Source of the DNA: a virus
Taxonomy: Duplodnaviria; Caudoviricetes
IMG/VR virus record: IMGVR_UViG_3300028045_000016
Coordinates: 1-57,630 of that record
DNA length: 57,630 nucleotides
Reading direction: 5' to 3' (one strand)
Under the pieces are notes generated by a model that was not told the origin of the DNA, made no database searches, and was given only the letters and a program-made list of their open reading frames with translations. Of this stretch, positions 10,962 to 49,095 are shown piece after piece. Position 1 is the first letter of the stretch; every line of letters begins with the position of its first letter. The position numbers were made by a program, and so were the translations under genes.

Positions 10962-12395
10962 ATGAGTGTACAAAGCGTACCCGGATTTGATTTACAACCA
11001 TCAGCACAACAAGTGCCGGTTGCATCAAACTACATAACTAACTTTGATTTCTTGAATCAGTATCTTCCTGATACTTACGAAAAGGAATTTGAGCGTTATG
11101 GAAACAGAACAATCTCCTCATTCCTAAGAATGGTAGGAGCAGAAATGCCATCTAACTCTGACCTTATCAAATGGGCAGAACAAGGAAGATTGCATACTAA
11201 GTATACTGACTGTACAACTGCAGCAGTAATTAATGCTAAAGAAGCTACTTTTGCAGTAAACGATGCAGGTAACCCTGCTTTCGGTGCAAGTAACAGTATC
11301 GCTATTAGAAAAGGACAAACAGTAATGGTATCTGACAATGCAGGTGGTGGTTCCGTAAAAGGAATTGTAACTGATGTTGACTTAGCTAACTTTACTTTTG
11401 ACGTAGCATTTTACCCATTAGCAGGTATTCCTATTGCAGGAGCAGGTGCTAAGTTTACTGTGTTTATCTACGGTTCTGAATTTAAAAAAGGAACAGTAGG
11501 GATGGAAGGAAGCCTAGAAGCTGACGACCTAATCTTCGAGAACTCACCAATTATCATTAAAGATAAGTATGCAGTATCAGGTTCTGATATGGCACAAATC
11601 GGTTGGGTTGAAGTAACTACAGAGAACGGTGCTAACGGATACCTATGGTATTTGAAGTCTGAGCACGAAACTAGATTACGTTTTGACGATTATCTAGAGA
11701 CTGCAATGATTGAAGCAGTTCCTGCTGAAGCAGGTTCAGGTGCAGCAACCGGTGCTATTAACCCTGAGTACGGTAACAAAGGTTCTGAAGGAATCTTCTA
11801 TGTTGTTGGAAACAGAGGTAACGTATGGGCAGGTGGTTCACCAACGGCTCTAACACAATGGGATACTATTATCTCAAGACTTGATAAGCAAGGAGCAATT
11901 GAGGAAAACGTTGTATTTGTAGATAGAGATTTCTCTTTCGACATTGACGATATGCTTTCTCAGCAGTCTTCTAATGCAGCAGGTGGTGTATCTTACGGTC
12001 TTTTTGACAATGAAAAAGATATGGCATTGAACTTAGGATTTACAGGATTCCGTAGAGGTTACGATTTCTACAAGTCTGATTGGAAATACTTGAACGACCC
12101 AACAATGAGAGGTGGTCTTTCTGCAGCAGCAGGTTCAGGTAGAGTAAACGGATTGTTAGTACCTGCAGGTTCTACTTCAGTTTATGACCAAATCTTAGGA
12201 AAGAACGCTAAGAGACCATTCTTGCACGTTAGATATAGAGCTTCTGAAACAGAAGACAGACGTTACAAGACTTGGATTACAGGTTCAGCAGGTGGAGCAA
12301 GAACTTCTAGCTTAGATGCTATGGAGGTACACTTCTTATCTGAAAGAGCAGTATGTACTCTAGGTGCAAATAACTTTATGTTATTCCAATCGTAA
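10962..12395 (+). CDS. Major capsid protein
   Basis: 477 aa after the scaffold, codon usage suggesting high expression, followed by a strong terminator. Confidence 0.85.
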   Translation: MSVQSVPGFDLQPSAQQVPVASNYITNFDFLNQYLPDTYEKEFERYGNRTISSFLRMVGAEMPSNSDLIKWAEQGRLHTKYTDCTTAAVINAKEATFAVNDAGNPAFGASNSIAIRKGQTVMVSDNAGGGSVKGIVTDVDLANFTFDVAFYPLAGIPIAGAGAKFTVFIYGSEFKKGTVGMEGSLEADDLIFENSPIIIKDKYAVSGSDMAQIGWVEVTTENGANGYLWYLKSEHETRLRFDDYLETAMIEAVPAEAGSGAATGAINPEYGNKGSEGIFYVVGNRGNVWAGGSPTALTQWDTIISRLDKQGAIEENVVFVDRDFSFDIDDMLSQQSSNAAGGVSYGLFDNEKDMALNLGFTGFRRGYDFYKSDWKYLNDPTMRGGLSAAAGSGRVNGLLVPAGSTSVYDQILGKNAKRPFLHVRYRASETEDRRYKTWITGSAGGARTSSLDAMEVHFLSERAVCTLGANNFMLFQS

Positions 12396-13303: not shown

Positions 13304-14257
13304 ATGATAAATTCAGTTAGACAAACGGTAATGTCCGTCCTGAATAAAAATAACTATGGATACATATCTCCATCTGACTTCAACTTGTTTGCTAAACAAG
13401 CACAGTTGGATTTGTTTGAGAATTATTTTTATGCGTACAACTATCAGATTAGCAAGGAGAATGCTCGTAAATCAGGAACGGGTTATGCCGATATTACAAA
13501 AGGTTTAGAAGAGGTTATTGATACTTTTTCAATTACAAGACCATTAACTATATCTAGTGGTAGTGAATATTTTTTACCTTCATTACTTACAACAAACGAT
13601 GACTATTACTTACTAAATAAAATACTAATAAATAATGAAGTAATATTTAGTGGAACAACTACGACTAACGTAGGTGGTGCCAATCAGATTATTGATACCA
13701 ATGCAGACTTTATAGCGTTGGGAGTTATGGTTGGAGATATAGTTGGAGTTGAAGTACAGGGATACTCTTACAACTTAGTTGTAACAAATGTAACGGTAAA
13801 TACTCTTACAGTAACACCGGGTGTTTTAAATACCTTTCCTTTAAATTATACCATATACCAACCTGACGAAAAAAAGGAAGCAGAGAAAGTTACTCATAGT
13901 AAAATAACTATGTTAAACAATTCGTTGCTTACAAAACCTAACTTGTCATATCCGGCATATACTCAAGAAGGATTGGTTGGACAGGCTTATCCAACAACAA
14001 TAAATAATCCGGGACAATTAATTTGTCAATACATACGATTCCCGTATATCCCTAGATGGACATACGTTACACTATCAAGTGGAGAACCTGCCTTCGATGA
14101 GGGAGCAGCAGACTATCAAGATTTTGAATTACCAAATGATGATGAGGTGAACTTAGTTAATAAAATACTTCAATACGCAGGAATGTCTATTAGAGAAGTT
14201 AGTACGGTTCAGTTTGCTCAGGCAGAAGAGAATGTATCTAACCAACAAGAAAAATAA
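13304..14257 (+). CDS. Putative tail adaptor/ring protein
   Basis: Position after the head module, N-terminal GYISPSDFNLFAKQAQ and C-terminal FELP..LVNKILQYAG. Confidence 0.6.
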   Translation: MINSVRQTVMSVLNKNNYGYISPSDFNLFAKQAQLDLFENYFYAYNYQISKENARKSGTGYADITKGLEEVIDTFSITRPLTISSGSEYFLPSLLTTNDDYYLLNKILINNEVIFSGTTTTNVGGANQIIDTNADFIALGVMVGDIVGVEVQGYSYNLVVTNVTVNTLTVTPGVLNTFPLNYTIYQPDEKKEAEKVTHSKITMLNNSLLTKPNLSYPAYTQEGLVGQAYPTTINNPGQLICQYIRFPYIPRWTYVTLSSGEPAFDEGAADYQDFELPNDDEVNLVNKILQYAGMSIREVSTVQFAQAEENVSNQQEK

Positions 14258-14259
14258 TT

Positions 14260-15183
14260 ATGGCATATATTTCACAATATCAGTATTACGAAAACGGAGG
14301 AGCAAATCCGGAAGATGCCAATTGGGGGTCATATCAATATGTATCACTAGAGGACATCGTAAATAATTTTATGTTAATGTATACAGGAAATCATAGTCTT
14401 GTAAACAACGAAGAAAGATATAAAATTTTGTTTCACGCAAAGAGAGCAATACAAGAATTAAACTATGATGCATTTAAAGAAATAAAAATATTAGAGTTAA
14501 GTGTTTGTGACCAACTTCGATATGTATTACCATCTGACTATGTAAATTGGGTTCGTGTTTCTATTTATCAAAATGGTTTACTTAAACCACTTACAGAAAA
14601 TATTCAGACTAATTGGTCAGGTGCATACTTACAGGATAATGATTGCAGGATATTATTTGATATTGATGGAAACGCATTATCACCACAACAATCTACATTA
14701 GATTTTGATAGGATAAGAGGCACTAAGCAGTCAATATATTTAAACCAAAACTCAGAAATGTATGGCAAGTCAGGATACAACTGTGATGGTAATTGGTATT
14801 TTGAATATGGCATTGGTGCACGTTACGGACTTAATACAGAGACTGCAAATGCAAATCCTACATTTAAGATAAACCCTAAGGGTGGTGTAATAAATTTTAG
14901 TTCAGGAGTTTCAGGAGAGTTGATTGTCCTAGAATATGTTTCAGATGGTATGGAAAATGGTAACGACAGTTCTGTTAACGTAAACAAAATGTTTGAAGAA
15001 TTTATTTATGCTCACATAGAGTTTGCGATTCTTAATTCAAAGGTTGGTGTTCAGGAATATATTATTGCTAGAGCAAAGAAAAGAAAATCAGCATTACTAA
15101 GAAATGCTAAGATTAGAATAAGTAACATACACCCCGGTAGATTATTGATGAATATGAGGGGTAGAGACAAGTGGATTAAGTAA
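14260..15183 (+). CDS. Putative tail adaptor/ring protein 2
   Basis: LPSDYVNWVRV and LEYVSDG motifs, between the adaptor and nozzle genes. Confidence 0.6.
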   Translation: MAYISQYQYYENGGANPEDANWGSYQYVSLEDIVNNFMLMYTGNHSLVNNEERYKILFHAKRAIQELNYDAFKEIKILELSVCDQLRYVLPSDYVNWVRVSIYQNGLLKPLTENIQTNWSGAYLQDNDCRILFDIDGNALSPQQSTLDFDRIRGTKQSIYLNQNSEMYGKSGYNCDGNWYFEYGIGARYGLNTETANANPTFKINPKGGVINFSSGVSGELIVLEYVSDGMENGNDSSVNVNKMFEEFIYAHIEFAILNSKVGVQEYIIARAKKRKSALLRNAKIRISNIHPGRLLMNMRGRDKWIK

Positions 15184-15184
15184 T

Positions 15185-18100
15185 ATGGCGAATACAACAA
15201 GAAACTTTACTCAAGGTAAAATGAATAAGATGGTTGACGAAAGACTCGTTCCAAACGGGGAATACGTTGATGCATTAAATATTCGTATGGGTTCTACAGA
15301 AGGCTCTGAGATTGGAGTTATAGAGAACTCAAAAGGGAACACACAATTAACTACGCTCAGGTTTAATGGAAACCCATTAAGTGAAGGTGCTAGATGTATT
15401 GGTGCTTATGAAGATGGTACTAATGAAACCATTTATTGGTTTGTACACGACCCAACATTTGAAAGTCCCGGTACACCTACAGGTATTGTAGATATGATTG
15501 TATCGTATGACGATAACAGTAATTCAATAACGTATCACGTTATTAGTGTTAATGATGGTGGTGGTGAAAAGACAACATTAAATTTTAATCCTGAATATCT
15601 TATAACAGGAGTAAACTTAGTTGACTCTAAACTATTATTTTTTACAGACAATTATAATGCTCCTAGAAAAATAAACACAGAATTTAATTACGGAGACCCT
15701 ATAGCAGGAGTTGATGGATTTTCTTATGATGAAATATTAGTTATAAAAAAACCACCGGCTACATCTCCGAATGTTAGGCTTATAAACTCTGCAGGAGACT
15801 CTACTTATATGGAGGACAGGTTCTTGTGTTTTGGCTATAGGTACAAGTATAGTGATGATGAGTACTCTGCAACATCTCAGTTTTCAACTGCAGCTTTTAC
15901 TCCCGGAGCGTTTGAGTTTTCTCCTGATAGTTACCTCAACGAGGGTATGGTTAATTTCACAAATACTGCAGAAGTAACTTTTAATTCAGGTGGTCCTTTA
16001 GTGAAAGGTGTTGATATACTCTTCAAAGACAACGATACAAACGTAGTTAAAATTATAGAAAAATTAGATAAAAAGAAAAATGCCTATAGTGATTTTCAAG
16101 ACTATAGCTTTACTTTTACTAATAGTAAAATATTTACAATACTTCCTGAAGCAGAAGTTCTAAGGCTTTATGACAATGTTCCTAGATACGCACAGGCTCA
16201 AACCATTATGGGTAACAGGCTTATGTTTGGTAACTATGTAGAAGGTTATGACCTTACAGACGATGACGGAAATCCAACTCGACTTACTTTCTTTACGAGT
16301 CAAACAAACGAATCAATTGGTATTGAAGATGTGGAGGATGGTGTTAAGGAAGTAAATTATTCAATAGGTCCTGCCAACAATTCTCAGGCAGGTTTTGAAA
16401 TAGACTTCGGTCAAGACATAGACTTAATTGCAGGTTCAGCTATACAGGTGACAATGAGATTTAATCATTCATCTTTTAATGGTACTGCACCTTTCCCTAT
16501 AGAAGAACAAGCTGATACAGAAATTGGATACATATTTAATGTTCAACAAAACTTTAATAGTATTTATGAATATTCTGTAAGTCAATCTTTTTTAGAACAA
16601 GTAGGTACGCTTAGTAATATTAAGCCATTGCAAGATGCTGCAGACCCTGAAAACAATTCTTGTAACGGTGGAACTTTTACAGATGTTTTTTACTGTTCAA
16701 TAAACGCAGCTTTAGATACTTTAGTTAAGAAGGACGGTGGTGTTAGTGCAACAGGTCCACAACCTATACAAGTTATATCTACTCCGGGAAGCAATGTAAT
16801 AACATTAGAATTACCTGCAGTAGAGTTTGTAGATGATATAGCATTACCAACACAATCTGTTTATGAGTATTATGAAATAATTTTTGGTGAAGTTAGCTTT
16901 GCTAAGATTGGAGTAGCAGAAAGCTTACACAGTAACAGAGGGTATGAAGTTGGTATGGTTTATATGGATGAGTTTAATAGAGCAACACCTGCTCTAGTGA
17001 GTCCAAACAACACAGAGCATTTCCCTTGTGGAATGTCTGAATTTAAAAACAGTATTCAGGTAACAATACCAACAACACAGACGGCACCAAGTTGGGCAAA
17101 AAAATATAAATTTGTAGTTAAGCCTGATAAAGAAAAGTATGAAACAATTTATACTAATATATTCTTTGAAGACCCTAATACATCAGCAGCTTATTTTTTA
17201 TTAGAAGGTGAAAACTCACAAAAAATTACTGAGGGACAGAGGCTGATAGTAAAAGCAGATACGAGAGGTGCTTTAAGTAGATGTGTAAACGCTACGGTTT
17301 TAGAGAAAGAATCTAAGACTGCAGACTTCTTAGAAATTCCTGTAGAAGGTGGAGAGTCAGATGAGTTTGTCCCACAACCTGCAGGAACTTATATGAAGAT
17401 GAATACCAACAAGTTTAATGCTGAAGTTGGTAAGGATGCAGTTGTAGATTTTGGTAGAAGAGATAAAACTGCAGATAGAAGAGACCACTATCCTTTGGTA
17501 CAATACCCTGTGAATTTAAATGTAGCAGACCCTAACATACCGGGTTCAACCCATACTGATTATGATATACCTGCAGGTTCTAGAATAGTAATTGATTTAT
17601 TTTTTGAAAGAAAAGGTAGGTCTGACGGTAACAATGCTTGTGAAAGAAGGACATATGAGTTGACAGAAACATATTCTTCAAGTAGCAGTTATGATAGTTT
17701 TTTAGATTGGTTTAATGGAGATAATATTGGAGACACATTAAACAATGGAGTTGCTTTTGCAGGAGATAATTCTTGTCCACCGAATAATGAGTATCTTTCT
17801 ACATTACTTGAAAGTGATTTAGGAAATTCACCGAGTGATATCCCTCAAAGTCTATGTAATAATTACTATCAGTTTTATAGAAATAATACTACTAACGAAT
17901 TATTGTTTTTAGTAAGAGGAACAAGAGCCTGTAGTAGAACAAAAAAACAAAGGTCATATGCTAGGGTAAAGATAACAGTATTTAGAGCAGAGAATACATT
18001 GGTTTTTGAAACACCACCTATTGATGCTTCTCCTGATATTTGGTATGAAGGTGCAGACTCTTATGATGTTGTATCTAAAGATGGAATATGTTCTTTTGAC

Positions 18101-19864
18101 GTAACCGTAGCTGCTGCAGAGCCATCACCAATTGGGTTTGATTATATTGATATGGAAGGTATACCTAGACAGTTTACTGTAGCACCGGGGACTACTGTTA
18201 ATTCAGTTTATGGAGAGTGTGGGTCAATGGCTTTTAGTCCTGCGACACCCCCTGTTTTTGGTGGAAGTATAACTATTGATTCTACTGCAGTTTCAAAAGG
18301 AAATCATATTACTGACATTACACCACAAACAGATTCTCAAGCAGGGGTAGTAAACCTTGGTATGTATAATTGTTTTTCGTTTGGAAACGGTGTAGAAAGT
18401 TATAAGATAAGAGACAGTATACTTGGAAGGCAATTAATATTTGGTAACAGAGTTACCTCTACTCAGGCAATAGATTATGCTGAGGTAAATAGATTTGCCG
18501 ATATAACGTATAGTGGTGTTTACAATGACGAATCCAATGTCAATAGATTAAATGAATTTAATGGAGGTCTTCTAAACTTTAAAGCTTTAGAGGAATCTTT
18601 TGGACCAATTCAAAAACTATTTGCTAGAGAGACAGACGTGCTTACTCTGCAAGAAGATAAAATATCTTATGTATTGTCGGGTAAAAACATACTGTCTGAT
18701 GCAGGTGTTGGTAGTTTGTTACAATCAGTACCCGAAGTTCTAGGTACTCAAGTTGCAAGAATTGAAGAGTTTGGAATAAGCCACAACCCTGAAAGCTTTG
18801 CTCAATGGGGTCCTGAAAAGTATTTTACTGATTCAAAAAGAGGTGTGGTATTAATGCTATCGGGAAGTAGTTATCAAAATGACCAACTTGCAGTTATATC
18901 AGCGATGGGTATGCGTACTTGGTTTAGAGATTTATTTCAAGTTCAAGTCAACACACAGAAGCTAGGAGGATACGACCCTTATATGAATGAATATGTTATT
19001 ACAGGAAATAATGAAAAGCTTCCTGTGATGCTAGATTGTATTGATTGTGGTATAACATCTCAATATAATTTAGATGAACAATTATCTCAATGTTATGACC
19101 TAGGTAATTCCGTGGGTAATGTTGAAATAACTTATGAGATTATAAACATAGTAGGAACTGTTAATCTTGTAGCAACCTATAATAATTTCTCTACTCAGAC
19201 AGGACCTGTTAGTACATCAGGAACTTTGGTAGTTCAAAAAACACTAGCAAACATTAGTGAAATGCAATTAGAAATTATACCAACCGGTAGTGTTGATATT
19301 GAATTCACAGTTAACTGTCCTCTACAAAATGAAATGACTGTTATAAATATTTGTGCCACATCTGATGTTAACTCCGATGATACTGTTCACAATGATTTCA
19401 ATTGGAATCAAAATGGATACTCATCACCTGTTAACTCTGTGCCTATCATATTTGGTTCGGCTAACACAAATCCTGTGGTAAGTTATTATGAAGTAAACTC
19501 AGGAGTTCAAGGAATTGGTAACATACCACCTAACGGAAGTGTTGTAACATTAGCGTTTAACAAATACAGTACAGACGATGCAACGTTTAATTTGAATTTA
19601 AATAAGTTTAGATTTTTACGAAGCGATACATTATACCCTAATACACCTGCAGCAGTTTCTCAGGCAATAGCAGCTTCTACAATAGCATCGCCTATTGACA
19701 GTAGTTTAGCACCTAATTATTACAAAGCTGAATTTACTGTATCAGGAAGTGGAGAGTATCTGTATGTTATTTATGATTATAGAACACCAACATTAATAGA
19801 CCTTTGTCAATCAGATAGTGTACAAGCTGCCTGTTGTGGATGTGATGAGGGACCACAAGTTTAA
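15185..19864 (+). CDS. Tail nozzle/stabilisation protein (P22 gp10 or crAss muzzle-like), N-terminal part
   Basis: N-terminal GKMNKMVDERLVPNGEYVDALN, LFFTDNYNAPRKIN, and GISHNPESFA..YFTDSKRGVVL propeller motifs. Confidence 0.75.
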   Translation: MANTTRNFTQGKMNKMVDERLVPNGEYVDALNIRMGSTEGSEIGVIENSKGNTQLTTLRFNGNPLSEGARCIGAYEDGTNETIYWFVHDPTFESPGTPTGIVDMIVSYDDNSNSITYHVISVNDGGGEKTTLNFNPEYLITGVNLVDSKLLFFTDNYNAPRKINTEFNYGDPIAGVDGFSYDEILVIKKPPATSPNVRLINSAGDSTYMEDRFLCFGYRYKYSDDEYSATSQFSTAAFTPGAFEFSPDSYLNEGMVNFTNTAEVTFNSGGPLVKGVDILFKDNDTNVVKIIEKLDKKKNAYSDFQDYSFTFTNSKIFTILPEAEVLRLYDNVPRYAQAQTIMGNRLMFGNYVEGYDLTDDDGNPTRLTFFTSQTNESIGIEDVEDGVKEVNYSIGPANNSQAGFEIDFGQDIDLIAGSAIQVTMRFNHSSFNGTAPFPIEEQADTEIGYIFNVQQNFNSIYEYSVSQSFLEQVGTLSNIKPLQDAADPENNSCNGGTFTDVFYCSINAALDTLVKKDGGVSATGPQPIQVISTPGSNVITLELPAVEFVDDIALPTQSVYEYYEIIFGEVSFAKIGVAESLHSNRGYEVGMVYMDEFNRATPALVSPNNTEHFPCGMSEFKNSIQVTIPTTQTAPSWAKKYKFVVKPDKEKYETIYTNIFFEDPNTSAAYFLLEGENSQKITEGQRLIVKADTRGALSRCVNATVLEKESKTADFLEIPVEGGESDEFVPQPAGTYMKMNTNKFNAEVGKDAVVDFGRRDKTADRRDHYPLVQYPVNLNVADPNIPGSTHTDYDIPAGSRIVIDLFFERKGRSDGNNACERRTYELTETYSSSSSYDSFLDWFNGDNIGDTLNNGVAFAGDNSCPPNNEYLSTLLESDLGNSPSDIPQSLCNNYYQFYRNNTTNELLFLVRGTRACSRTKKQRSYARVKITVFRAENTLVFETPPIDASPDIWYEGADSYDVVSKDGICSFDVTVAAAEPSPIGFDYIDMEGIPRQFTVAPGTTVNSVYGECGSMAFSPATPPVFGGSITIDSTAVSKGNHITDITPQTDSQAGVVNLGMYNCFSFGNGVESYKIRDSILGRQLIFGNRVTSTQAIDYAEVNRFADITYSGVYNDESNVNRLNEFNGGLLNFKALEESFGPIQKLFARETDVLTLQEDKISYVLSGKNILSDAGVGSLLQSVPEVLGTQVARIEEFGISHNPESFAQWGPEKYFTDSKRGVVLMLSGSSYQNDQLAVISAMGMRTWFRDLFQVQVNTQKLGGYDPYMNEYVITGNNEKLPVMLDCIDCGITSQYNLDEQLSQCYDLGNSVGNVEITYEIINIVGTVNLVATYNNFSTQTGPVSTSGTLVVQKTLANISEMQLEIIPTGSVDIEFTVNCPLQNEMTVINICATSDVNSDDTVHNDFNWNQNGYSSPVNSVPIIFGSANTNPVVSYYEVNSGVQGIGNIPPNGSVVTLAFNKYSTDDATFNLNLNKFRFLRSDTLYPNTPAAVSQAIAASTIASPIDSSLAPNYYKAEFTVSGSGEYLYVIYDYRTPTLIDLCQSDSVQAACCGCDEGPQV

Positions 19865-21043: not shown

Positions 21044-21880
21044 ATGAGCAACCAAGTAATAGAAAATAAAAATTACACACTAAGCTATGATAGTGGTGTA
21101 AAAGGATTTCCTTCCTTTTATTCTTACGACCCTGAGTGGATGTTAGGAATGAATAATTTCTTTTATACGTTTAAAGGGGGTAACCTTTACCGTCATAACG
21201 TGAACGAGAGTAGAAACGAATATTATGGAACAAGGTATCCTTCTGTCGTTCAGTCAGTATTTAATGAGAACCCATTAGACAATAAACTTTTTAAGACAAT
21301 AAATCTTGAAGGTGATGACTCTTGGGATACATTGATATTTAGTGACCAACAAAACACAGGTTTTATTGAGGGTGGGCAACTAACTGCAGACAACTATTAC
21401 GAGACAAAAGAAGGTGCTCAATTTGCATTTATAAGAAACTCAGGTCAATCGTTTACTTCAAGTGCTAATAGTAATCAGTTTCCTTTACGCTCTTTAAATG
21501 GTATAGCAACTAGCAACGATATTGTTATTGGTGGAGGTAATACCACTACTGTTAATTTTCCAACATCTATTTTTATTGGTGGAATAATTAGTATCGGTGA
21601 TATGTTATATTTTACCGACAACGGGGTGCCAAAACTAATAGGCAGGGTTACTAGTATAGATGTAGATTTACCGGCAGGTATTAATAGAATTGTTACACAA
21701 AACAATATACCAACATCTCAAACTCCGGGACCAAGTGAATACATTTTATATTTAAAAAATTCCGTAGCAGAATCTCACGGTATTTTGGGACACTATGCAG
21801 TTTTTACTTTAACAAACTACAATGCTAATAAAACAGAGTTGTTTGCAGTTGAGAGTGAAGTAATGAAATCATACCCATAA
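21044..21880 (+). CDS. Tail protein resembling the C-terminal part of the nozzle/stabilisation protein
   Basis: YTLSYDSGVKGFPSFYSYDPE, KLFKTINLEG, KEG..FAFI and ELFAVESEVMKS. Confidence 0.6.
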   Translation: MSNQVIENKNYTLSYDSGVKGFPSFYSYDPEWMLGMNNFFYTFKGGNLYRHNVNESRNEYYGTRYPSVVQSVFNENPLDNKLFKTINLEGDDSWDTLIFSDQQNTGFIEGGQLTADNYYETKEGAQFAFIRNSGQSFTSSANSNQFPLRSLNGIATSNDIVIGGGNTTTVNFPTSIFIGGIISIGDMLYFTDNGVPKLIGRVTSIDVDLPAGINRIVTQNNIPTSQTPGPSEYILYLKNSVAESHGILGHYAVFTLTNYNANKTELFAVESEVMKSYP

Positions 21881-25119: not shown

Positions 25120-28100
25120 ATGAATGACGATTTGTATTCAATAATGATGGAAGGTGCCTTTGCCGATAGAGCAGAGTTCGATGCCTACGTTGGACAGTCA
25201 ACACCCGAAGAAATATATGAACTTGTAATGGAGGGTGCCTTTGCAAACTTTGAAGAGTTTAATGAATTATACTTTAAGGACGGGCAGGTTGATGAGAAAG
25301 TTGAAGACGTAAAAAAAAAAGACGAATCTCAAAACCCATTTGCTTCATCAGAAGAAGTGGTTCTCCCAAGTATGCCGGGTGGTACTGTGGATTCTTCAGA
25401 GTCAGAATCTTCATCGGATACTCCCGAAGAACTTGACCTTACAAAAGACAACTACGAGCAACCTGTAAATGAGGATATAAACCTAACAGATGCTTCTGTA
25501 GAGGACCCATTTTCAGAGTCAGTTAACAATGTAATAAACCCCGACCTATTAACGGATACTGAGGAATCAGTAATTCCTAAGATGAAAAATTATTTTTCTC
25601 AGTACGGTTTTACTTTTAAAACTGCAGACTATCTAGGTGATGGTATGAATATAGAAGCTGAGAATGGTAACAAGCTTTATGTAAATCTAGATAGAGCAAG
25701 TGATTTCTTTTCTATATCTGATTCTCAAGAAGATTCTGCAAAAGAACTTCAAGCTTTTTTAAGAGACAACAGAAGAGAAAACGAGGAGATTTTAAATCAA
25801 GCAGGTGTTGTAGTAGAGAATCAAAGAAAAGCTTACAACGAAAAAGAAATTCTTGAAACCGTAAAGAACTTCAACAAACAGGCACAGGGTTTTGAAAATC
25901 GTGTAAAGGAGTATGCATTGTACAAGAACAAACTTGACAAGTACTATGAGGTTAAACTTTCCAACGTAACAAAAGAGCAGCTAGAAAACGATGAAGTTTT
26001 AAGAGCAAACTACGAGCAATGGAATAAACTTAATGAAAGAGCAACAGAAATGCTATCTGATTTAAGAGTAGAAGATGAAAACTTTCAGATTCAAGGGCAG
26101 CAATTAGACAGAATGGCAGGTGAGTATTTAGAGATGCGACAGGATATGGGTTCATATTCAGGTGGTTTCTACAATGCATTGTTGGATGGTAGTGCTAGGA
26201 TAAGTGCAGGAGTAATGGATGCCTTGATTGATGGAACTACATACGCATTACCTAATGCAGGAATGTCCGAGAAGGAATATAAAAATGAGATTGCTAGAGT
26301 TGCCTTAGAGAACGGAGACTTTCCTTCAGGAAACTATAGAGAGACTATACCAAAAGAAGACATTGACGAGAACGGAATGGTTACTTTGAAAGACCCTGAG
26401 TTGGGTACGGATAAGAAAGTTAGTGTTAGTTTATTCCCTAGTGTTTTTGATTTAAGCAAAGACGAAATGGTTGAAATCCTTGGAGGAGATACCAATGATT
26501 GGAAGTTTGTTGGCAACGCAATAAACATTGCTTTAGCTACGGGAGTACCCGGACCCGGTGGTGCTAGGATACCCGTTTCCCCTGTCGGTGATATAACACC
26601 TAAGTCTGCATATGATAAGGCACATTCAAAAGTTTTAGACCTTGCGAGAAAAGGATTAAAATATGAGGAAGGATATGACCAAGCTAAGTCAAAAGATATG
26701 CAAGGTGGTAGGTACAGAAATTCATATTCAAGTACTGCTACAAACGCAGATACTTCATTGGGTATGCTTGAGGCTACTCGTGATGGTTTACGAGAAGTTG
26801 CAGGTGTAAAGCAAACAACAAAGGAATGGTCTGACTTAGAGAAGCAAAGCTTTTGGGGTGGTGCCTTACTTGGTGTTACAGAATCTTTACCGGCAATGCT
26901 TGGTGGTAGTAGTCCTGTAGGTTGGGCACAACGTACTGCTCAGATGTACTCTCAGGTTACAGACCACGTTAATGAAGAGATGGAAAAAGATGCTGCCTTC
27001 GATATGATTTCTGAAGCAGAAAAGCAATCAGTAAAAATACCAATTGGTGTAGCAGTAGGAACACTAGAAGCTATTGGACTTAGAAACGTACTAAGACAAA
27101 AAGGTTTCTTAAACGGTGTGATTGGTAGAGCAATGGCTAGGTCTAACAGTAAGACAACTGCAAAGACATTCTCTGAAATGATAAGACAAGATGTTTCTAG
27201 TATGATTGCTAGAGGTGGTCTTGTTATTACAGGAGCAGGTGCTGCAGAATACGAAACAGGTTTCTTACAAGAGGCTGCAGAACTTACAATAAAAGATATC
27301 TATAATGATTCCAAGGAGAAGGAAATGTTTAAGACTCCTGATACTTGGCAAGATTGGATTAGAAGAGTTAACCGTGCAGGTTTGCAGGAAGCAGTAGGTG
27401 GATTTGTATTGGGAGCACCAAGAGCAATGGCTACTGCCGTAAGTGGATTAGAGGTACAGAGTCTAGATGATAGGGTTTTTAAAATGTTTGAGCAAGTTAG
27501 TAAGGACCCTAACTATATGAATATGTACGTCACAAAATTGAAGCAACGTATTGCTGATACTAAGGATGCTACTACAAAGAAAGAAGCACAAGAAGAATTA
27601 GATTTAGTAAGACAACTTCAAGGTGCACTTGAACAGATTCCAAAGGAGTATAATACAAAACAAAAGAAAGAAGCTATACAGTTAATCTTCCAAAAGAATA
27701 AGTTGGACAATGAGATTCAATCTGAAGATAAAATTTTATCTAAGCCTAAGCAGGAATTGTTAAACAAAGTAAACGATAGACTTGCTGCTATTGTTGGAGA
27801 GGTGGTTATAGAACAACAACAGGGAAGAGTTAACGAACAAAAAATTCAAGACTTTGAAGATGGAACTACTGAAGTTCAGAACACTACACAAGTTACTCCT
27901 GAAGAGCAGAATGATATTGATGAATTCTTTAACGAGGAAAATGATAACTCTGATGTAAGGGCAGACAACCTTTCTATAAACAGAAACAATAAGGGTGGTA
28001 AAAATAAAAACCCATTTAGAAACGATGTTATTAGGATAGCAGAGTTAGGAGCCAAGGCAATAGCTAAGGTCTTACCTGATGTTAAAATAGTAATGCACGA

Positions 28101-31100
28101 AGACAACGAGCAGTTTTTAAAGTATGCAAAACTTGGTCAAGGTAGGGCAGAGTATAATCCGGACAACAAAACCATTCACGTTAACCTATCTTCTGCTAAA
28201 AAAACAACAGTACCTCACGAGATTTTTCACGCAGTACTGATGGACAAAATTAAAAGCGACCCTGCTATTGCGAAAGCTGCAGAGACTATGCTTATGTCTG
28301 TAAGAAAAGTAATGCCAAAGGGTAGTGAACTTAGTGAGCGTATTGAGAGATTCGCTAAAGGTTATGAAGGTGATATAGTTCAGAATGAAGAGAGACTTGC
28401 CGAGTTGATTGGTATACTATCTTCAGAATATAGAACCTTAACTAAGCCACAAAAAAACATTGTAGTTGATTTCTTAAAAACTATTGCAAGAACTTTAGGT
28501 ATAGAAAAAGTATTAGCTAAGTATGGTGTTGATGTTTCTTCAAGTGAATTCGGTAAAACCGATGCAGACATTGTAGACCTTCTTAATGCTATATCAACTA
28601 AGACTAGAAAGGGTGAAGCTTTGAATCAATCAGATATTCAAGCTTTAGAAACCATAAGTAAAGAACAAGAACAACAAGAACAACAAGAAGAAGAGCAAGG
28701 TTCAGAGGGTGAAGTTGGAACCCTACAATTTCCTAGACAACAAATAGAAATAATAGACTCGCCTAAAGTTCAAAACGACCCAAGACCTTGGGTTAAAGAA
28801 CTTGTTCAGGATGTGGATGTTTATACTCTAGATGGCAGAAACTTTGTGACTAATATGTACGACTATACTAACGCAGGTTTAACTGAGTTGGGTAATGGGT
28901 ACAGTATAAATCTTTTAGGTGGACGTAATTACGTTCCAATCATTATGAACAAAACGGGCAGAAAGTTAGGTGACGTATCTAACCTTGCTGCTTTCAATAC
29001 AAAGTCTCAAGCTGAAGGGTTTATTAGAAACGCAACAGAAGGTAAGGCAGATTTGTTTGCTCCACATTCCGGTACCTTAAACGGGTCTTGGCAATTTCAG
29101 CAACACATTTTTGAATCGTTAGTTGATTTAGTTCTTGATGAAAAAATACTTAGTAAGAAAAAACTTATTGATGCATTTAATAGTGGACTTCAATCTAAAG
29201 AAGGAAAGAGTGCGTTAGAAAAATTCAATAATAAAAACAACAGTAGATTAAAAAATCTAAATAGTTTTAAAGGAGACCCAAAAGCATTGGTTACTTTATT
29301 AGATATTGAAAACAATTATTCTCCTGACCTTAGAAAAATATTAAACCAAAAGATTGCATCTGATAAAACATTTCAGAAAGCAATTGGTGTAAAGAATCTA
29401 AACGAGTTTCATAGTAGAATGACCGACCCCTTAAACAAGGGAGTTGTTGGTGGTGAGATTATGTCCTTCGTTGAATTTGACCCGACAACATTTGAGGTTG
29501 CTAAAACGAATCCTAAAGATGTAGACCATCACCCATCATTTGGTTGGGTAGTTAAGGCTAAGATTAAAAAGATAATGCAGCCAAGCAAGTTCTTTAAATC
29601 TTACGATGTAACAGATACCTATACTAAATACAACACAGATGAGACGGTGGTATCAAGAAAAGCAGAACCTAATTTTGCTAAGTCAAATGTAACATCAAGT
29701 GCAGGTGCAATACCTAAGGTAGCTACTGTAAACAGAAAGCAAAGTAGTAGACAACAGAAAATAGACAAGGCATTGTCTAAGGCTTCAGGTACTACGCAAG
29801 TAGCAACAACCACAGGTAGCTATGTAAAAGCTGCAAACATTCTAAATAACCTAGAGATAAAAGGTGAGGTGTTAGACTTTGGTGCAGGTCTTGGACTTGG
29901 AACAGATGCAATGTCAAAGACATTAGGAAGTAAGGTTGATTCGTATGAAATAAATCCTGAAAGATGGAAGGGTAACAAGCCTGTAACATACACCAAGGTT
30001 GAAGACATAAATAAAAAATACGATGCTATTGTATCCCTGAATGTACTGAACGTTGTGCCTAAAGGGATTAGAGATGGTATTGTACAAGACATCTACACTA
30101 ATTTAAAACCGGGTGGTACTGCAGTTATTAGTACTAGAGGATTCAAGGGAGATATTAATAGTGCAAAAAACTTTGAGTTAGGTCCTGAAGAAAAAAGTTA
30201 TATCATCAAAAGAAAAAAAGATGGTGGTATTGTAGACGTATATCAAAAAGGATTTGACGGTAACGAACTCGTTGAATACATTCAAGATATATTAGGAGAC
30301 AAAGTAAAGGTTGCAAAGAAAGGTGGCTTTGGAAGTAGAGGTGTTATTGTACAGAAGCTTGATGGTGCTAAACCAAAAGGCAGACAACAAAAATCTATTG
30401 AAGAAATTGCAAGGTACTATCAAATGAATACTCAAGGGTTCTTCCCTAAGGGTGTTGACTTATATCGAGTAAAGAAATTACTCCCTCCCGGATATAGCGT
30501 TAAGCAATCTAAGTTTGACCAATATGGTAGAGGAGGTTCTTATTACTTAGTAAACTCTAGAGGATATAAGATTAATCCATACAAGAATAAAGGTAGACAA
30601 CAAAAAGAAATCGAAGATTATATTTTAGAGGCTAGGTCTAATAACTTTAAGGAAGGTCAGATAAAAGATTTCCTTATTAGAACAAAAAAGTTTCCTGCTA
30701 AATTAGTTAATCAGATGATGGAGATTGATGCAGACTTGTTTGAATCATTACCTAAAAGCTTTGGTAACATAGAGGGTGGGCAACAAGCAGGTATAAAACT
30801 ATATCAAAAGATTGAAGCTTACAAACAAAAGCTTACTAAGAATAACAAGAGAAGAAAAAACAAATTAACTCAACAAGAGATAGTTGATAAGACTATAGAG
30901 TTCTTAGAGCAGCAGCCTGAGTATATTGCCGAAGGTGATACATACACAGTTGGTAGTAAAAAGAAAGGAACTCAAGTTACAAAAACAAGAAAGGGTCTAT
31001 CCCTTCAACAGGCTCAGATGTTATCAGACTTACAGTCTTCGATAGATATTAGACCATCTCAGAATATGGGTGTTAAGTTAGCAAAAGCAAGACTGTTTTT

Positions 31101-34100
31101 AAGACAAGCCAAGAAGGGTGCAAGAGATTTACAGGCAGTAAAAACTCAGGTAAGAAACTTTATTCGTAAGTCTTTACCTAAAGAGATATACGATACTAAA
31201 GAAGTAATGGCTTTAATTAATGAAGTTACTGCTGCAGATACTTCCAATATAGATAACGTTATGGAAAGGGTTACAGAATTTGTAATCAAAACCAATGTTA
31301 AATCTTTGAAGAGAAAGATATCTCAAATCCTAAACGGAAAATATACTGAGGTTGTAAATAATAGAAAGAGACCAAAGAAAATTACAAGTGAAATTCTAAA
31401 AAGAATTGAATTTATTAAGAGCAATCTTCTTTCTGAGAAAGCTACACCTGAGGATATTGCAGAAGCAAACTTAGTTTTGTTGGCTAGATTTGATGAGTTG
31501 ATGGGTAAGCTTCAACAGACGGTAGCCGAGCAAGAAGAGATGGTTGATATTCAACTAGCTATGCAGTACAACAATGCACTAGGAATGGATAATGGTAACT
31601 CTCAAAAGGTTACTGAGTTAGATGGTGTTGCTAATACCTTAACGGAGTTAGTTAAATACGGTAGGTCTTTATTGAAAGAGGAACTATTAAAAATGCATCA
31701 GTATTACAACAAACAATTTGAGGAAGGGTACGAAGCCATAACAGAAACGAGGGTGGATATGACGGACCCTGATGCAAAGAGTGAATTGAATAACGTAAAG
31801 AGAAACCGTAAGTCAGACAGAAGAAAAAAGGAAGCGACTCGTGGTGTACTTAGAACATTCTTTAGTACTACCAAGAAGGGTATCTTTAATTTCATTGCCT
31901 CAGCAGAAGCATTAGATGGATTAATGATGAGGTTGGACAAACTTCCGGGTGAAATGTTTGGAGGAAGATTAAATGAAATGTTTACCGAAAGGATAGATGC
32001 ATCTTCTAGAATGTTTAAAGGAAGAATGTTATTAAACGAAACTGTAGTTCAAGATTTTCTTTTAGAAACTTATGGAAAAGGTTGGAAGAAAAAGTCAAGA
32101 GAGCACAGGGTAAGAGTAGACCACAACATACAGATAACTGATGGGGTTATGCTACCTGCTATGAGTCAAAACCAATTGGCTTACTTGTACAATATGTATA
32201 AGAATCCTGCTAACTTAGATTCATTTGCGAACCCTGAAATGTATGGTGTTGAGGTCATCAACAAGGAAGACTCAGCAAAAGAAAAGAACAGAAAGAAAAA
32301 AGAGAACAGAGCCAATGCAAGGAGAGTTATGTCTGAGATAGAATCAAAGATAGATGACGATGTTAAGACAGTTGCAGATTGGCAAGTAGAGGTTTTATAT
32401 CCTTCATTGTATAGTCACTATAATAAAACTTATAAGAAGCTTTATAGAACTGACTTGCCTTGGAATAACTACTACGCAGGTACCATCTACAGAGAAGGTA
32501 TTGCTGAGACAGAAACCGATGTAATGAATATCGTTGGTGCAGGTAATGTAATGAGAACTGCAGTTGGTGCTACTGCAACCAAGACTAGAATCAATAGTAC
32601 GCTACCAATAAGAGATATGGATATGATGGATGTGCTTAACACATACATTAATGAAATGGAATATGTAGCTGCCTATGGAGAAACAGTTAGGGATATGGAT
32701 AAGTTCTTTAAGAACAAGTATGTAAAGGATGCTATCATAGATATACACGGAGAAAATATCTACGGGTTTGTTAAAGATATGATAGAGAAGATTGCGACTA
32801 GAGGTACACAAACAGGATTGAAAGCTTCGGTAATAAACGGAATGAATAATGTTTTCATTTTGTCAAGACTTGCATTAAGTCCTGTGATTGCTATCAAGCA
32901 GCTTACGTCTACGTTTACTTATATGAATGATATAGGTCCTATCAATTGGTTGAAGTATGCAGCAAAGAATAAAACTCAACAACTAAAAGTTTGGAAAGAG
33001 GTTACTGCTAATTCTGTTTATATGCAAGACAGAAATAACCAAAGTATAATGAGAGCCATTGAAACCTACACGGATACTCAGATGAAAGAATTTATTCCTA
33101 GACCTGCAAAGGATTGGGCATTAAACTTTATGATGTATACTACAAAGTGGGGTGATAGAAATGCAATTATGTTAGGTGGTTTACCAAACTATTCTTACTA
33201 TAAGGCACAAGCTATTAAAGATGGAAAGAGTGAGCAGGAGGCAATTGATATTGCTATAAGAAAGTTTGAGAGAGATACAAAAAGAACTCAGCAATCTTCA
33301 GACCTTCAGGATAAAGATTTCTTACAGACAGGTGACCCAATAACTAGAGCATTAAATATGTTCTTGACAACACCAAAACAATATCTAAGAAAAGAAATTA
33401 TTGCGACAAGAGAACTGTATAGAATGGTTTCTAAGATGGATACTAAAGCAGGTAAAGGAACTCTAACTCAGAACCTAAGAACATTTGTAACGTATCATAT
33501 TTTTATGCCTGTGTTATTTCAATATGTATCTATGGGACTACCGGGATTACTTAGAGGCTTTAGAGACGATGATGATGAAGACCTAATAAGAGCAGCAGTC
33601 ATTGGTAACTTGAACGCTTTGTTCTTACTAGGAGAAGTTGTTACAATGGCAGGTGATTATTTAACGGACAAGCCTTGGGCAGGGAGTCAGTCAAAATCTG
33701 TAGGTGTGTTACAAATAGCAGGAAGCATTACTAGAAAGTTGGCAGCAGCAAGTAACACTAAGGACCCACAGAAAAGAGCAGATAACTTTATGAAAGTTTA
33801 TCTTGAGTTGGCTACCATAACAGGATTACCTGCACCAACAATTGCAAAGTTCTTTGACAACTACTCTAAGCTTGATGAAGGTGACCCGGGTGAAATGATA
33901 CTAAGGCTTTTGAATTACTCTAAGTATACAATAGAAGGTAGTAATAAATCAAAACGAAGTTCTACATCAAAAGTTAACTCGTCAGAAAAATATCTAAAGG
34001 ATTTAGAAAAAGCTGATAAAGAATTTTTGAAAGAACAAAAAGGTGAAAGTAAAAAGAAATCAGGCTTTGGTACAGGTGGCTTCGGTGGAGGTGGCTTTGG

Positions 34101-34134
34101 TACAGGTGGCTTCGGTGATGGAGGGTTTGATTAG
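25120..34134 (+). CDS. Giant polyvalent/ejection protein with zincin metallopeptidase and class I SAM methyltransferase domains
   Basis: 3004 aa. HEIFH at aa ~1033 with a downstream EE..AE, VLDFGAGLG and YDAIVSLNVLNVV methyltransferase motifs, helical C-terminal region with hydrophobic segments. Confidence 0.8.
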   Translation: MNDDLYSIMMEGAFADRAEFDAYVGQSTPEEIYELVMEGAFANFEEFNELYFKDGQVDEKVEDVKKKDESQNPFASSEEVVLPSMPGGTVDSSESESSSDTPEELDLTKDNYEQPVNEDINLTDASVEDPFSESVNNVINPDLLTDTEESVIPKMKNYFSQYGFTFKTADYLGDGMNIEAENGNKLYVNLDRASDFFSISDSQEDSAKELQAFLRDNRRENEEILNQAGVVVENQRKAYNEKEILETVKNFNKQAQGFENRVKEYALYKNKLDKYYEVKLSNVTKEQLENDEVLRANYEQWNKLNERATEMLSDLRVEDENFQIQGQQLDRMAGEYLEMRQDMGSYSGGFYNALLDGSARISAGVMDALIDGTTYALPNAGMSEKEYKNEIARVALENGDFPSGNYRETIPKEDIDENGMVTLKDPELGTDKKVSVSLFPSVFDLSKDEMVEILGGDTNDWKFVGNAINIALATGVPGPGGARIPVSPVGDITPKSAYDKAHSKVLDLARKGLKYEEGYDQAKSKDMQGGRYRNSYSSTATNADTSLGMLEATRDGLREVAGVKQTTKEWSDLEKQSFWGGALLGVTESLPAMLGGSSPVGWAQRTAQMYSQVTDHVNEEMEKDAAFDMISEAEKQSVKIPIGVAVGTLEAIGLRNVLRQKGFLNGVIGRAMARSNSKTTAKTFSEMIRQDVSSMIARGGLVITGAGAAEYETGFLQEAAELTIKDIYNDSKEKEMFKTPDTWQDWIRRVNRAGLQEAVGGFVLGAPRAMATAVSGLEVQSLDDRVFKMFEQVSKDPNYMNMYVTKLKQRIADTKDATTKKEAQEELDLVRQLQGALEQIPKEYNTKQKKEAIQLIFQKNKLDNEIQSEDKILSKPKQELLNKVNDRLAAIVGEVVIEQQQGRVNEQKIQDFEDGTTEVQNTTQVTPEEQNDIDEFFNEENDNSDVRADNLSINRNNKGGKNKNPFRNDVIRIAELGAKAIAKVLPDVKIVMHEDNEQFLKYAKLGQGRAEYNPDNKTIHVNLSSAKKTTVPHEIFHAVLMDKIKSDPAIAKAAETMLMSVRKVMPKGSELSERIERFAKGYEGDIVQNEERLAELIGILSSEYRTLTKPQKNIVVDFLKTIARTLGIEKVLAKYGVDVSSSEFGKTDADIVDLLNAISTKTRKGEALNQSDIQALETISKEQEQQEQQEEEQGSEGEVGTLQFPRQQIEIIDSPKVQNDPRPWVKELVQDVDVYTLDGRNFVTNMYDYTNAGLTELGNGYSINLLGGRNYVPIIMNKTGRKLGDVSNLAAFNTKSQAEGFIRNATEGKADLFAPHSGTLNGSWQFQQHIFESLVDLVLDEKILSKKKLIDAFNSGLQSKEGKSALEKFNNKNNSRLKNLNSFKGDPKALVTLLDIENNYSPDLRKILNQKIASDKTFQKAIGVKNLNEFHSRMTDPLNKGVVGGEIMSFVEFDPTTFEVAKTNPKDVDHHPSFGWVVKAKIKKIMQPSKFFKSYDVTDTYTKYNTDETVVSRKAEPNFAKSNVTSSAGAIPKVATVNRKQSSRQQKIDKALSKASGTTQVATTTGSYVKAANILNNLEIKGEVLDFGAGLGLGTDAMSKTLGSKVDSYEINPERWKGNKPVTYTKVEDINKKYDAIVSLNVLNVVPKGIRDGIVQDIYTNLKPGGTAVISTRGFKGDINSAKNFELGPEEKSYIIKRKKDGGIVDVYQKGFDGNELVEYIQDILGDKVKVAKKGGFGSRGVIVQKLDGAKPKGRQQKSIEEIARYYQMNTQGFFPKGVDLYRVKKLLPPGYSVKQSKFDQYGRGGSYYLVNSRGYKINPYKNKGRQQKEIEDYILEARSNNFKEGQIKDFLIRTKKFPAKLVNQMMEIDADLFESLPKSFGNIEGGQQAGIKLYQKIEAYKQKLTKNNKRRKNKLTQQEIVDKTIEFLEQQPEYIAEGDTYTVGSKKKGTQVTKTRKGLSLQQAQMLSDLQSSIDIRPSQNMGVKLAKARLFLRQAKKGARDLQAVKTQVRNFIRKSLPKEIYDTKEVMALINEVTAADTSNIDNVMERVTEFVIKTNVKSLKRKISQILNGKYTEVVNNRKRPKKITSEILKRIEFIKSNLLSEKATPEDIAEANLVLLARFDELMGKLQQTVAEQEEMVDIQLAMQYNNALGMDNGNSQKVTELDGVANTLTELVKYGRSLLKEELLKMHQYYNKQFEEGYEAITETRVDMTDPDAKSELNNVKRNRKSDRRKKEATRGVLRTFFSTTKKGIFNFIASAEALDGLMMRLDKLPGEMFGGRLNEMFTERIDASSRMFKGRMLLNETVVQDFLLETYGKGWKKKSREHRVRVDHNIQITDGVMLPAMSQNQLAYLYNMYKNPANLDSFANPEMYGVEVINKEDSAKEKNRKKKENRANARRVMSEIESKIDDDVKTVADWQVEVLYPSLYSHYNKTYKKLYRTDLPWNNYYAGTIYREGIAETETDVMNIVGAGNVMRTAVGATATKTRINSTLPIRDMDMMDVLNTYINEMEYVAAYGETVRDMDKFFKNKYVKDAIIDIHGENIYGFVKDMIEKIATRGTQTGLKASVINGMNNVFILSRLALSPVIAIKQLTSTFTYMNDIGPINWLKYAAKNKTQQLKVWKEVTANSVYMQDRNNQSIMRAIETYTDTQMKEFIPRPAKDWALNFMMYTTKWGDRNAIMLGGLPNYSYYKAQAIKDGKSEQEAIDIAIRKFERDTKRTQQSSDLQDKDFLQTGDPITRALNMFLTTPKQYLRKEIIATRELYRMVSKMDTKAGKGTLTQNLRTFVTYHIFMPVLFQYVSMGLPGLLRGFRDDDDEDLIRAAVIGNLNALFLLGEVVTMAGDYLTDKPWAGSQSKSVGVLQIAGSITRKLAAASNTKDPQKRADNFMKVYLELATITGLPAPTIAKFFDNYSKLDEGDPGEMILRLLNYSKYTIEGSNKSKRSSTSKVNSSEKYLKDLEKADKEFLKEQKGESKKKSGFGTGGFGGGGFGTGGFGDGGFD
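34063..34131 (+). repeat. 30-bp tandem repeat encoding a GFG-rich tail
   Basis: GGCTTTGGTACAGGTGGCTTCGGTG twice, giving GFGTGGFGGGGFGTGGFGDGGFD. Confidence 0.85.
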
Positions 34135-49020: not shown

Positions 49021-49021
49021 G

Positions 49022-49095
49022 TACCCCCTTCAGGACTCGAACCTGAAACCTACACATTAGAAGTGTGTTGCTCTATCCAATTGAGCTAAGAGGGC
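49022..49095 (-). tRNA. tRNA-Arg (anticodon TCT), no encoded CCA
   Basis: Acceptor GCCCTCT/AGGGGGT, D stem GCTC/GAGC, anticodon arm ACACA-CTTCTAA-TGTGT, T arm TCAGG-TTCGAGT-CCTGA. Confidence 0.93.

Follow-up and report, generated by a model that had tools for sequence, protein, structure and literature searches.

An R-x-Q junction motif delimits exchangeable cassettes in a giant zincin-bearing polyvalent protein of a phage and may act as its processing signal

The window analyzed here, the IMG/VR virus record IMGVR_UViG_3300028045_000016 at its full length, is one contig of 57,630 bp that is a phage by its gene content. It contains a giant open reading frame (ORF), P0001, which was recognized as an open frame and by its homologues, lies at 25120-34134 on the + strand (as do all features of P0001 given below) and encodes a polyvalent protein of 3004 amino acid residues (aa). 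The N-terminal region (aa 1-939, 25120-27936) is covered by high-scoring segment pairs (HSPs) to homologues, and no Pfam, PHROG or NCBIfam family matched it. It is followed by a zincin-like metallopeptidase module (aa 940-1176, 27937-28647), delimited by alignment and profile, with the zinc-binding/catalytic motif HEIFH at aa 1033-1037 (28216-28230) and the residues E1090-E1091 (28387-28392, alignment columns E151 and E152) of an invariant NEE..AEL stretch. Behind this module lies an E/Q-rich linker (28648-28734), with a predicted local distance difference test score (pLDDT) below 50, that ends in a conserved EQG.EGEVGT anchor; the E/Q-rich stretch behind HEIFH is SKEQEQQEQQEEEQGSEGEVGT. Four copies of the tripeptide Arg-Gln-Gln (RQQ) and three modules come next: junction site 1 (aa 1206-1208, 28735-28743), the D338 module (aa 1209-1543, 28744-29748), junction site 2 (aa 1544-1546, 29749-29757) after an SSAGAIPKVA anchor, an S-adenosylmethionine (SAM) methyltransferase cassette (aa 1547-1754, 29758-30381), junction site 3 (aa 1755-1757, 30382-30390), the small basic/aromatic S71 module (aa 1758-1825, 30391-30594) and junction site 4 (aa 1826-1828, 30595-30603). 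The protein continues with a conserved C-terminal part of about 1180 residues (aa 1829-3004, 30604-34131), which has a Gly/Phe-rich tail.

The tripeptide RQQ occurs four times in P0001, beginning at aa 1206, 1544, 1755 and 1826 (nt 28735, 29749, 30382 and 30595), with spacings of 338, 211 and 71 aa, and sites 1 to 4 are encoded by AGACAACAAA, AGACAACAGA, AGACAACAAA and AGACAACAAA, respectively. The amino acid composition predicts 0.32 copies, and four or more were obtained in 2 of 5000 residue shuffles. Across all stop-to-stop frames of at least 100 aa, the window shows only two more copies, at nt 3067 and 51337, and among the late proteins, portal and capsid included, the one at nt 3067 is the only RQQ outside P0001. 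An earlier reading of the window, called here the original prediction, had reported the four copies with their codons, the three modules that they bracket and the position of this array behind an HEIFH peptidase and an E/Q stretch; all of these were recovered at the same amino acid and nucleotide positions.

Homologues were searched with aa 950-1900 of P0001, which gave 550 proteins of 1652-5257 aa at E<=1e-3 among 7998 scored candidates; homologue counts refer to the listed 120 of these 550. RQQ was found in 83 of the 120, nearly always in the central third of the protein. The SSAGAIPKVA end of D338 is followed, depending on the protein, by the methyltransferase, by S71, by an ART-PolyVal module (RTERLAPNG..), by one of several unknown modules or, with no cassette in between, by the C-terminal part. 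In P0087 and P0090 the same modules are permuted, and all breaks between them are at RQQ. When the HSPs of P0001 against 119 homologues were inspected, 46 ended at aa 1540-1559 (site 2), 16 started at aa 1750-1759 (site 3) and 21 started at aa 1810-1829 (site 4). Site 1 is no swap point for P0001 itself; in P0090 cassettes sit there, and many homologues keep RQQ, REQ, RKQ or K.Q behind the GEVGT anchor that precedes it. The region between the anchors ranges from 19 to 1065 aa across homologues, the longest with several sites. Proteins with about 20 aa between the anchors retain one RQQ (P0010, P0030, P0060-62 and P0064) or one REQ (P0018-20), and those with S71 alone retain two RQQ. Furthermore, R.Q or K.Q precedes the start of the C-terminal part where its anchor was found (63 of the 120 homologues).

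The position of the breaks was quantified in two ways. Internal alignment endpoints lay at most five residues from RQQ in 6.8% of 17,889 cases, compared with 0.7% for random positions; 66 of 99 non-redundant proteins entered this count. For the sharpness of the breaks, site pairs, which are not independent of one another, were picked on distal windows only (-40 to -16 and +18 to +42) to avoid circularity. The 43 pairs selected as similar only upstream show identities of 0.63-0.88 at positions -6, -5 and -2, and of 0.14, 0.07 and 0.02 at +3, +4 and +5. In the 137 pairs similar only downstream, identity is 0.14-0.26 up to position -1 and 0.74 at +3. Similarity between relatives is switched on or off within about three residues of RQQ, and the step lies on the tripeptide itself. 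These sequence comparisons show RQQ to be the exact junction of exchangeable cassettes, as the original prediction had supposed in calling it the border of plug-in cassettes: modules are exchanged, lost or reordered among homologues, and the breaks are at RQQ.

Cutting the homologues at RQQ gave 74 distinct segments that fall in 28 clusters, of which the largest are D338 (14 members), methyltransferase (12), S71 (12), ART-PolyVal (five) and an unknown module of about 147 aa, U147 (four). According to Pfam, 14 homologues contain ART-PolyVal in six proteins (in P0118 below the curated cut-off), LPD23 in three, and ParB_N, DUF6782 (a putative peptidase), DUF7178 and Phage_L5_gp82 in one each, as well as a weak GNAT match below cut-off; in P0001, Methyltransf_23 is the sole Pfam effector domain. 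An alignment of orthologues had been proposed as a check on the cassette idea, and in it the boundaries start and end at RQQ with this other cargo in place. In P0059 (aa 1911-1930), the 13 residues enclosed by two RQQ 16 residues apart are the beginning of an ART-type cassette (RTERLAPNGKQSS), and a methyltransferase cassette is next; this remnant looks like the scar of a cassette loss or exchange.

The motif shows variants. As read from the alignments, every module edge carries R-Q-Q, usually as P-x-x-R-Q-Q-K/R, and R-K-Q, R-E-Q or K-A/S-Q in other lineages; homologues without RQQ bear REQ, RKQ, RNQ, RSQ, RFQ or K[AS]Q at the corresponding anchors. When 1.84 billion proteins were searched with a zincin-region profile, 948 representative clusters reached E<=1e-3, mostly in proteins of 2000-3800 aa, and the variants were surveyed in 96 newly found representatives of at least 2000 aa, taken from the best 150 of the 948 clusters. 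All tripeptides were counted without bias in the zone downstream of the zincin and in the remainder of each protein; apart from words attributed to D338, those most enriched in the zone were RKQ (90 vs 39, 6.2-fold) and RQQ (65 vs 30, 5.8-fold). RQQ is not depleted outside the junction zone, with 30 copies in 198,628 positions compared with about 21 estimated from composition. Within proteins, the fraction of site pairs with the same variant was 0.348 compared with 0.187 +/- 0.019 after shuffling (76 proteins), a value reached in none of 5000 shuffles. The S71 module is flanked on both sides by RKQK in locus L037, by REQR and RQQV in locus L031, and by RQQK in the lineage of the window. The context of RQQ is also biased: Pro is at -3 in 33% of 97 contexts (11-fold), residues at -1 are small or polar, and K or R follows QQ in 62%. 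A further word, NLSIN[RK], lies upstream of the zincin at aa 950-955 (27967-27984, +) and is conserved in 70 homologues; it was rejected as an additional R-x-Q site, with R[KQ]Q in only 13 of the 70 and a beta-strand modelled at this position.

The shared codon word AGACAACA(A/G)A at the four sites had been read as a possible microhomology for cassette swapping. Codon usage was compared between 51 non-redundant RQQ sites, from the window and 45 IMG/VR loci, and the rest of the genes. AGA accounts for 0.69 of the Arg codons at the sites and 0.66 elsewhere (AGA makes up 66% of the Arg codons in the giant genes of this phage group), and CAA for 0.71/0.73 compared with 0.70; versions of the motif with CGT, CGC and CAG codons occur too. 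Since the codons of the RQQ sites equal the background, the word is real but is a product of codon bias, and what selection maintains is the peptide; a DNA microhomology was rejected as the conserved entity.

The modules and sites were further analyzed by domain searches and structure prediction. The 211-aa module is, by its sequence and predicted fold, a class I SAM methyltransferase, in agreement with its original assignment: Methyltransf_23 matches aa 1578-1673 with an E of 3.1e-8 and 33.9 bits (cut-off 27), and the model gave at least 500 Foldseek matches at E<=0.001, the best to class I GSMT and GNMT at about 1e-8. Stand-alone methyltransferase homologues of 205-226 aa, several of them on contigs of 47-292 kb, start and end at most about 10 residues from the RQQ that flank the cassette, and Microcystis phage MJing1 encodes the module as an ORF of its own (231 aa) beside a portal-sized gene. 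D338 shows 74 invariant columns in 16 sequences and is far more conserved than the neighboring modules; its invariant words include NFVTNMYD, PH.GT...SWQFQ and D.D.HPSF, and it looks enzyme-like by these words. No Pfam family, PDB sequence or profile match, or usable ESM Atlas match was found for D338. Models were predicted for aa 940-1215 (mean pLDDT 58) and aa 1520-1900 (mean pLDDT 71.9). Site 1 is inside aa 1147-1215 (model residues 208-276), site 3 is in model residues 231-237, between the last methyltransferase strand and the first S71 helix, and site 4 is in model residues 305-309, all of them with pLDDT <50; the folded parts that flank sites 3 and 4 mostly average pLDDT 65-93 in ten-residue blocks. 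A segment of 22 residues with pLDDT <50 ends at site 2, which is on the first turn of the N-terminal helix of the methyltransferase. In the predicted models, the RQQ sites are shown to lie in or at the edge of inter-domain linkers.

In the conserved C-terminal part, aa 2426-2939 match a 'structural protein' of Tenacibaculum phage Gundel_1 with 25% identity (tblastn, E 2e-25). According to the ESM Atlas, this part falls in unnamed viral clusters, and the nearest named ones carry LPD39 or LPD38, which we take as leads only. The sole strongly hydrophobic 19-mer of P0001 is at aa 2823-2843, and a Gly/Phe repeat, GFGTGGFGGGGFGTGGFGDGGFD, closes the protein (about 34060-34131). The whole P0001 sequence matched no PDB sequence by phmmer (best E 0.41) and no family in an NCBIfam scan.

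The peptidase signature is nearly universal in the family. HExxH is present in 117 of the 120 homologues, and the three without it are short or truncated; H1033, E1034, H1037, E1090 and E1091 are invariant in an alignment of 23 sequences. From the general zincin pattern, we take E1090/E1091 to be the candidate third zinc ligand, gluzincin-like. The zincin profile matches IrrE weakly (E 0.025) over the active-site stretch ..I.IN...T.AHE..HA. With Foldseek, the best rows for the zincin model were collagenase peptidase domains and IrrE/PprI, all with E >=0.07 and below trust level. Exhaustive full-domain comparison with VIA-align gave PPEP-2, a Pro-Pro endopeptidase (Z 7.2), collagenase T (Z 7.0) and anthrax LF (Z 6.1), where the trust level is Z 8. 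The region of aa 940-1176 is predicted to be a zincin by its signature, HExxH and a downstream Glu, with a weak resemblance to site-specific endopeptidases.

Several comparisons bear on the link between the motif and this peptidase family. Homologues of the methyltransferase in other protein families have no R-x-Q flanks, and a K.Q word was found in about 3 of about 33; gp52 of Pelagibacter phage HTVC103P shows neither HExxH nor R-x-Q sites. The portal of the window is 75% identical to that of the uncultured podovirus record MW202828. In this record (MW202828.1, 741-12320, - strand), the syntenic giant protein has 3859 aa, two HEFGH motifs and no R-x-Q array, and is almost unrelated to P0001; on this comparison, the entire giant cargo gene is replaced from one phage to a closely related one. 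The MW202828 protein is annotated as a 'reticulocyte binding/rhoptry protein', evidently a mislabel. A giant protein of Flavobacterium phage elemo (3694 aa) has an HEIFH module 31% identical to that of P0001, and RQQK and RMQK 223 residues apart. Furthermore, an exploratory scan of 52 zincins located the alignment columns most tied to the motif class at aa 996-1007, before the strand that leads into HExxH. K or R at the aligned positions 996, 1005 or 1007 was found in 11 of 13 REQ-class proteins and in 3 of 39 of the other classes (Fisher p 4e-7, kinship ignored), and the REQ-class proteins are spread over several tree branches. This is a hint, drawn from the aligned sequences, that the charge pattern of the zincin tracks the middle residue of the motif.

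The R-x-Q motif may be a proteolytic processing signal. The protein consists of an N-terminal part, the zincin, the E/Q linker, a variable number of self-contained modules and the conserved C-terminal part. As a precursor, it would be cleaved at the R-x-Q sites by its built-in HExxH...NEE zincin, either inside the capsid or once ejected, with release of the methyltransferase, D338, S71 and the C-terminal part as separate proteins, as in a viral polyprotein. New cargo could be gained by any recombination that keeps one site per junction. We favor a cleavage signal because of the conservation at the peptide level, the linker position, the use of one variant per protein and the intact HExxH...NEE. 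The R-x-Q peptide is probably a protease site; that the embedded zincin is the protease acting there has close to an even chance, perhaps slightly under it, and the combined interpretation, a polyvalent precursor cut at R-x-Q by its own zincin with release of the modules, we regard as evenly balanced between right and wrong. The scissile bond would lie within R-Q-Q-K.

A number of points weigh against self-cleavage by the zincin. A glutamine at P1 is typical of cysteine/serine 3C-like proteases and not of zincins. The zincin model is poor (mean pLDDT 58), with all its fold matches below trust level, and, unlike the MPTase-PolyVal (PF18818) zincins of polyvalent proteins, P0001 is not matched by this Pfam family at E<=0.1. 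Site 2 is modelled in a helix and not in a coil. Shared ancestry could account for the concerted variants and for the charge pattern; the RKQ class is essentially one clade, and its RQQ-class neighbors share the acidic residues of the zincin. An automatic read-out of the motif at three anchors gave 0.32 identical pairs within proteins, a noisy value, as the procedure also picks neighboring [RK].Q words. The 'structural protein' labels of the relatives were given by homology, and the Gundel paper makes no mention of mass spectrometry; both the cleavage and the virion location of P0001 are matters that we infer.

The motif might also not be cut at all, and be a junction or hinge peptide kept as a preferred crossover point, a flexible spacer that the protein needs in order to unfold and pass through the tail, or an element for docking or cross-linking (Gln plus Lys). 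The cassette breaks exactly within the motif count for this possibility. N4 vRNAP, ArdC and TraC1, which carry such peptidases and yet travel uncut according to the available text of Iyer et al. 2017 (PMC5512222), count both for it and against cleavage. The 13-residue ART remnant of P0059 fits it too, and the cargo proteins of crAss001 are described, in the portion of the paper at hand, as thought to be extruded partly unfolded (PMC10172136). However, a crossover signal should be conserved as DNA, and the codons of the motif show no uniformity beyond that expected from codon bias; a fixed R and Q, the Pro at -3 and a variant shared by a whole lineage are more than a simple spacer would require; and site 1 is retained though both parts that flank it are conserved. 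We consider an uncut motif unlikely.

A second possibility, which appears quite improbable, is that R-x-Q is cut by another protease: an unrecognized head-maturation protease, the separate ArdC-N/MPTase-PolyVal gene product of 47328-48263 (-) or a protease of the host that P0001 encounters once ejected. In this case, host targets or the cell wall would be the substrates of the built-in zincin. The genome does encode this second zincin (PF18818, E 2.7e-32), and head proteases with three-residue motifs process ejection proteins, as gp245 of SPN3US does after A-X-E in the text available (PMC10052503). Effector roles for such peptidases are listed in the consulted part of Iyer et al. (PMC5512222), and a cell-wall role is suggested in the accessible text of a preprint on phi24B (bioRxiv 10.64898/2026.04.10.717836). 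Against a different cutter, a scan of the 28 ORFs of at least 150 aa revealed no head-protease family, and RQQ is absent from the portal, the capsid and the other late proteins save for the copy at nt 3067. The motif, moreover, accompanies this zincin family, proteins of other families that contain the methyltransferase lack it, and the phage with the 75%-identical portal but two HEFGH zincins has no R-x-Q array. Finally, chance recurrence of a short tripeptide in a long K/Q/E-rich protein has a negligible probability and was rejected by the residue shuffles, the distal-window pair test and the 5.8- to 6.2-fold zone enrichment in independent representatives, and many homologues bear the motif at the same positions.

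The architecture of P0001 is that of a known polyvalent protein, and the part that looks new is the defined R-x-Q junction code. Several unrelated domains are found in one phage ORF, and effector domains of the class occur in the family. Polyvalent proteins were described by Iyer, Burroughs, Anand, de Souza and Aravind in 2017, who, in the text available, proposed self-processing by their zincins (PMC5512222), as the original prediction had stated; its presentation of an undescribed system was overstated to that extent, both the architecture and the self-processing idea being there already. Like the proteins in that text, P0001 is a giant multidomain phage protein that combines a zincin-like peptidase with variable effector domains, and ART-PolyVal, LPD23, ParB_N and methyltransferase domains of that repertoire occur in its family. 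Unlike them, its junctions are residue-exact, and the available part of the 2017 paper gives no cleavage, junction or linker motif (PMC5512222). No R-x-Q or other junction or cleavage motif for polyvalent proteins was found in the literature searched, supplements excluded. In the accessible text on phi24B, gp47 is a polyvalent protein of 2811 aa found in virions by proteomics; it resembles P0001 as a giant LPD-bearing protein with a metallopeptidase, from a short-tailed phage, and is a proposed ejection protein, but its peptidase belongs to the MuF-C family and no junction motif is reported there (bioRxiv 10.64898/2026.04.10.717836).

By analogy, the nearest functional parallel would be head-protease motifs such as the A-X-E of SPN3US. 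T4 gp21 and phiKZ gp175 are head proteases of the same kind. According to the part of the SPN3US study available, a three-residue motif likewise recurs there in packaged, ejected proteins, whereas the protease gp245 is separate, cuts capsid and portal too and mostly removes N-terminal propeptides (PMC10052503). In P0001, by comparison with these substrates, the motif is confined to one protein with its own peptidase and separates whole domains. RNA-virus polyproteins also combine one precursor, an embedded protease and a short Gln-containing site at each domain border; their proteases are chymotrypsin-like cysteine/serine enzymes and their genomes RNA, whereas P0001 has an embedded zincin in a double-stranded DNA phage, so this is an analogy only. 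The large cargo proteins of crAss001 (gp45, gp46 and gp47/49/50) are packaged in the virion and leave it before the DNA does, and come from a gene block behind the muzzle/tail genes, as P0001 does; the available text on crAss001 contains no mention of proteolysis, cleavage, protease or peptidase (PMC10172136). P0001 differs from this cargo in that it has no sequence match to the solved chains, and no RNA polymerase signature was seen in it.

More broadly, giant polyvalent proteins could be true polyproteins in which each zincin family has a private, co-evolving code, here R-x-Q with its middle residue read by the loop of aa 996-1007; we propose this tentatively, as something short of an even chance. 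If so, any domain flanked by the code would become an effector that can be injected and releases itself, and sequence alone would suffice to predict the mature ends of many uncharacterized phage effectors. Polyvalent proteins are widespread weapons of phages and plasmids, for which self-processing has been conjectured since 2017 without sites; a residue-exact junction code makes the conjecture testable by simple mutation, yields domain boundaries for uncharacterized modules such as D338, S71 and U147 and shows how new cargo gets plugged in. It would also offer a rule, taken from nature, for designing phage particles of laboratory strains that carry foreign proteins.

The genes for the terminase, the portal, the capsid and a muzzle-like protein precede the P0001 gene on the same strand, and P0001 takes the place of a cargo gene in the late operon. 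The large terminase is encoded at 5080-7308 (+) and the portal at 7305-9740 (+), and virion structural families match at 10962-12395 (+) and 13304-15183 (+). A structural protein of 1559 aa follows (15185-19864, +), then an ORF with the C-terminal domain of the crassvirus muzzle (crAss_MUZ_C, PF25729, E 4.1e-14; 21044-21880, +) and two further late ORFs before the 3004-aa ORF. In the portion of the crAss001 paper at hand, virion cargo proteins are encoded at the matching gene place (PMC10172136); gene position and relatives suggest that P0001 is packaged as virion cargo. Replication/recombination genes are located downstream of the giant ORF on the - strand. The portal is 45-48% identical to those of Maribacter and Flavobacterium phages, and Cellulophaga and Tenacibaculum phages match too. 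On account of these portal relatives, the host is most likely a member of the Flavobacteriia. The phage is described here as marine and podovirus-like, with a muzzle of the crAss type.

The second zincin gene of the genome (47328-48263, -) encodes a 311-aa protein in which an ArdC-N domain (PF08401, E 4.9e-24) precedes the MPTase-PolyVal match; it sits in the early/replication block and has a classic anti-restriction architecture. A GroEL-type chaperonin (PF00118, E 3.9e-55) is encoded at 49360-50943 (+) and a GroES-like protein (phrog_13932) at 3623-4186 (+); cpn10 is among the core genes of the proposed Pervagoviridae. The contig is a complete genome, circularly closed or permuted, since the ORF open at its 3' end (56198-57628) runs in frame into a 5'-open tail-fibre ORF with collagen repeats (2-1711, +), the joining codon being formed by the last two bases of the window and base 1. 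The first 2 kb show a GC content of 0.478, compared with 0.32-0.39 elsewhere, because of these collagen repeats. The sole tRNA gene of the window, located at 49021-49095 (-), encodes a tRNA-Arg(TCT), which reads AGA.

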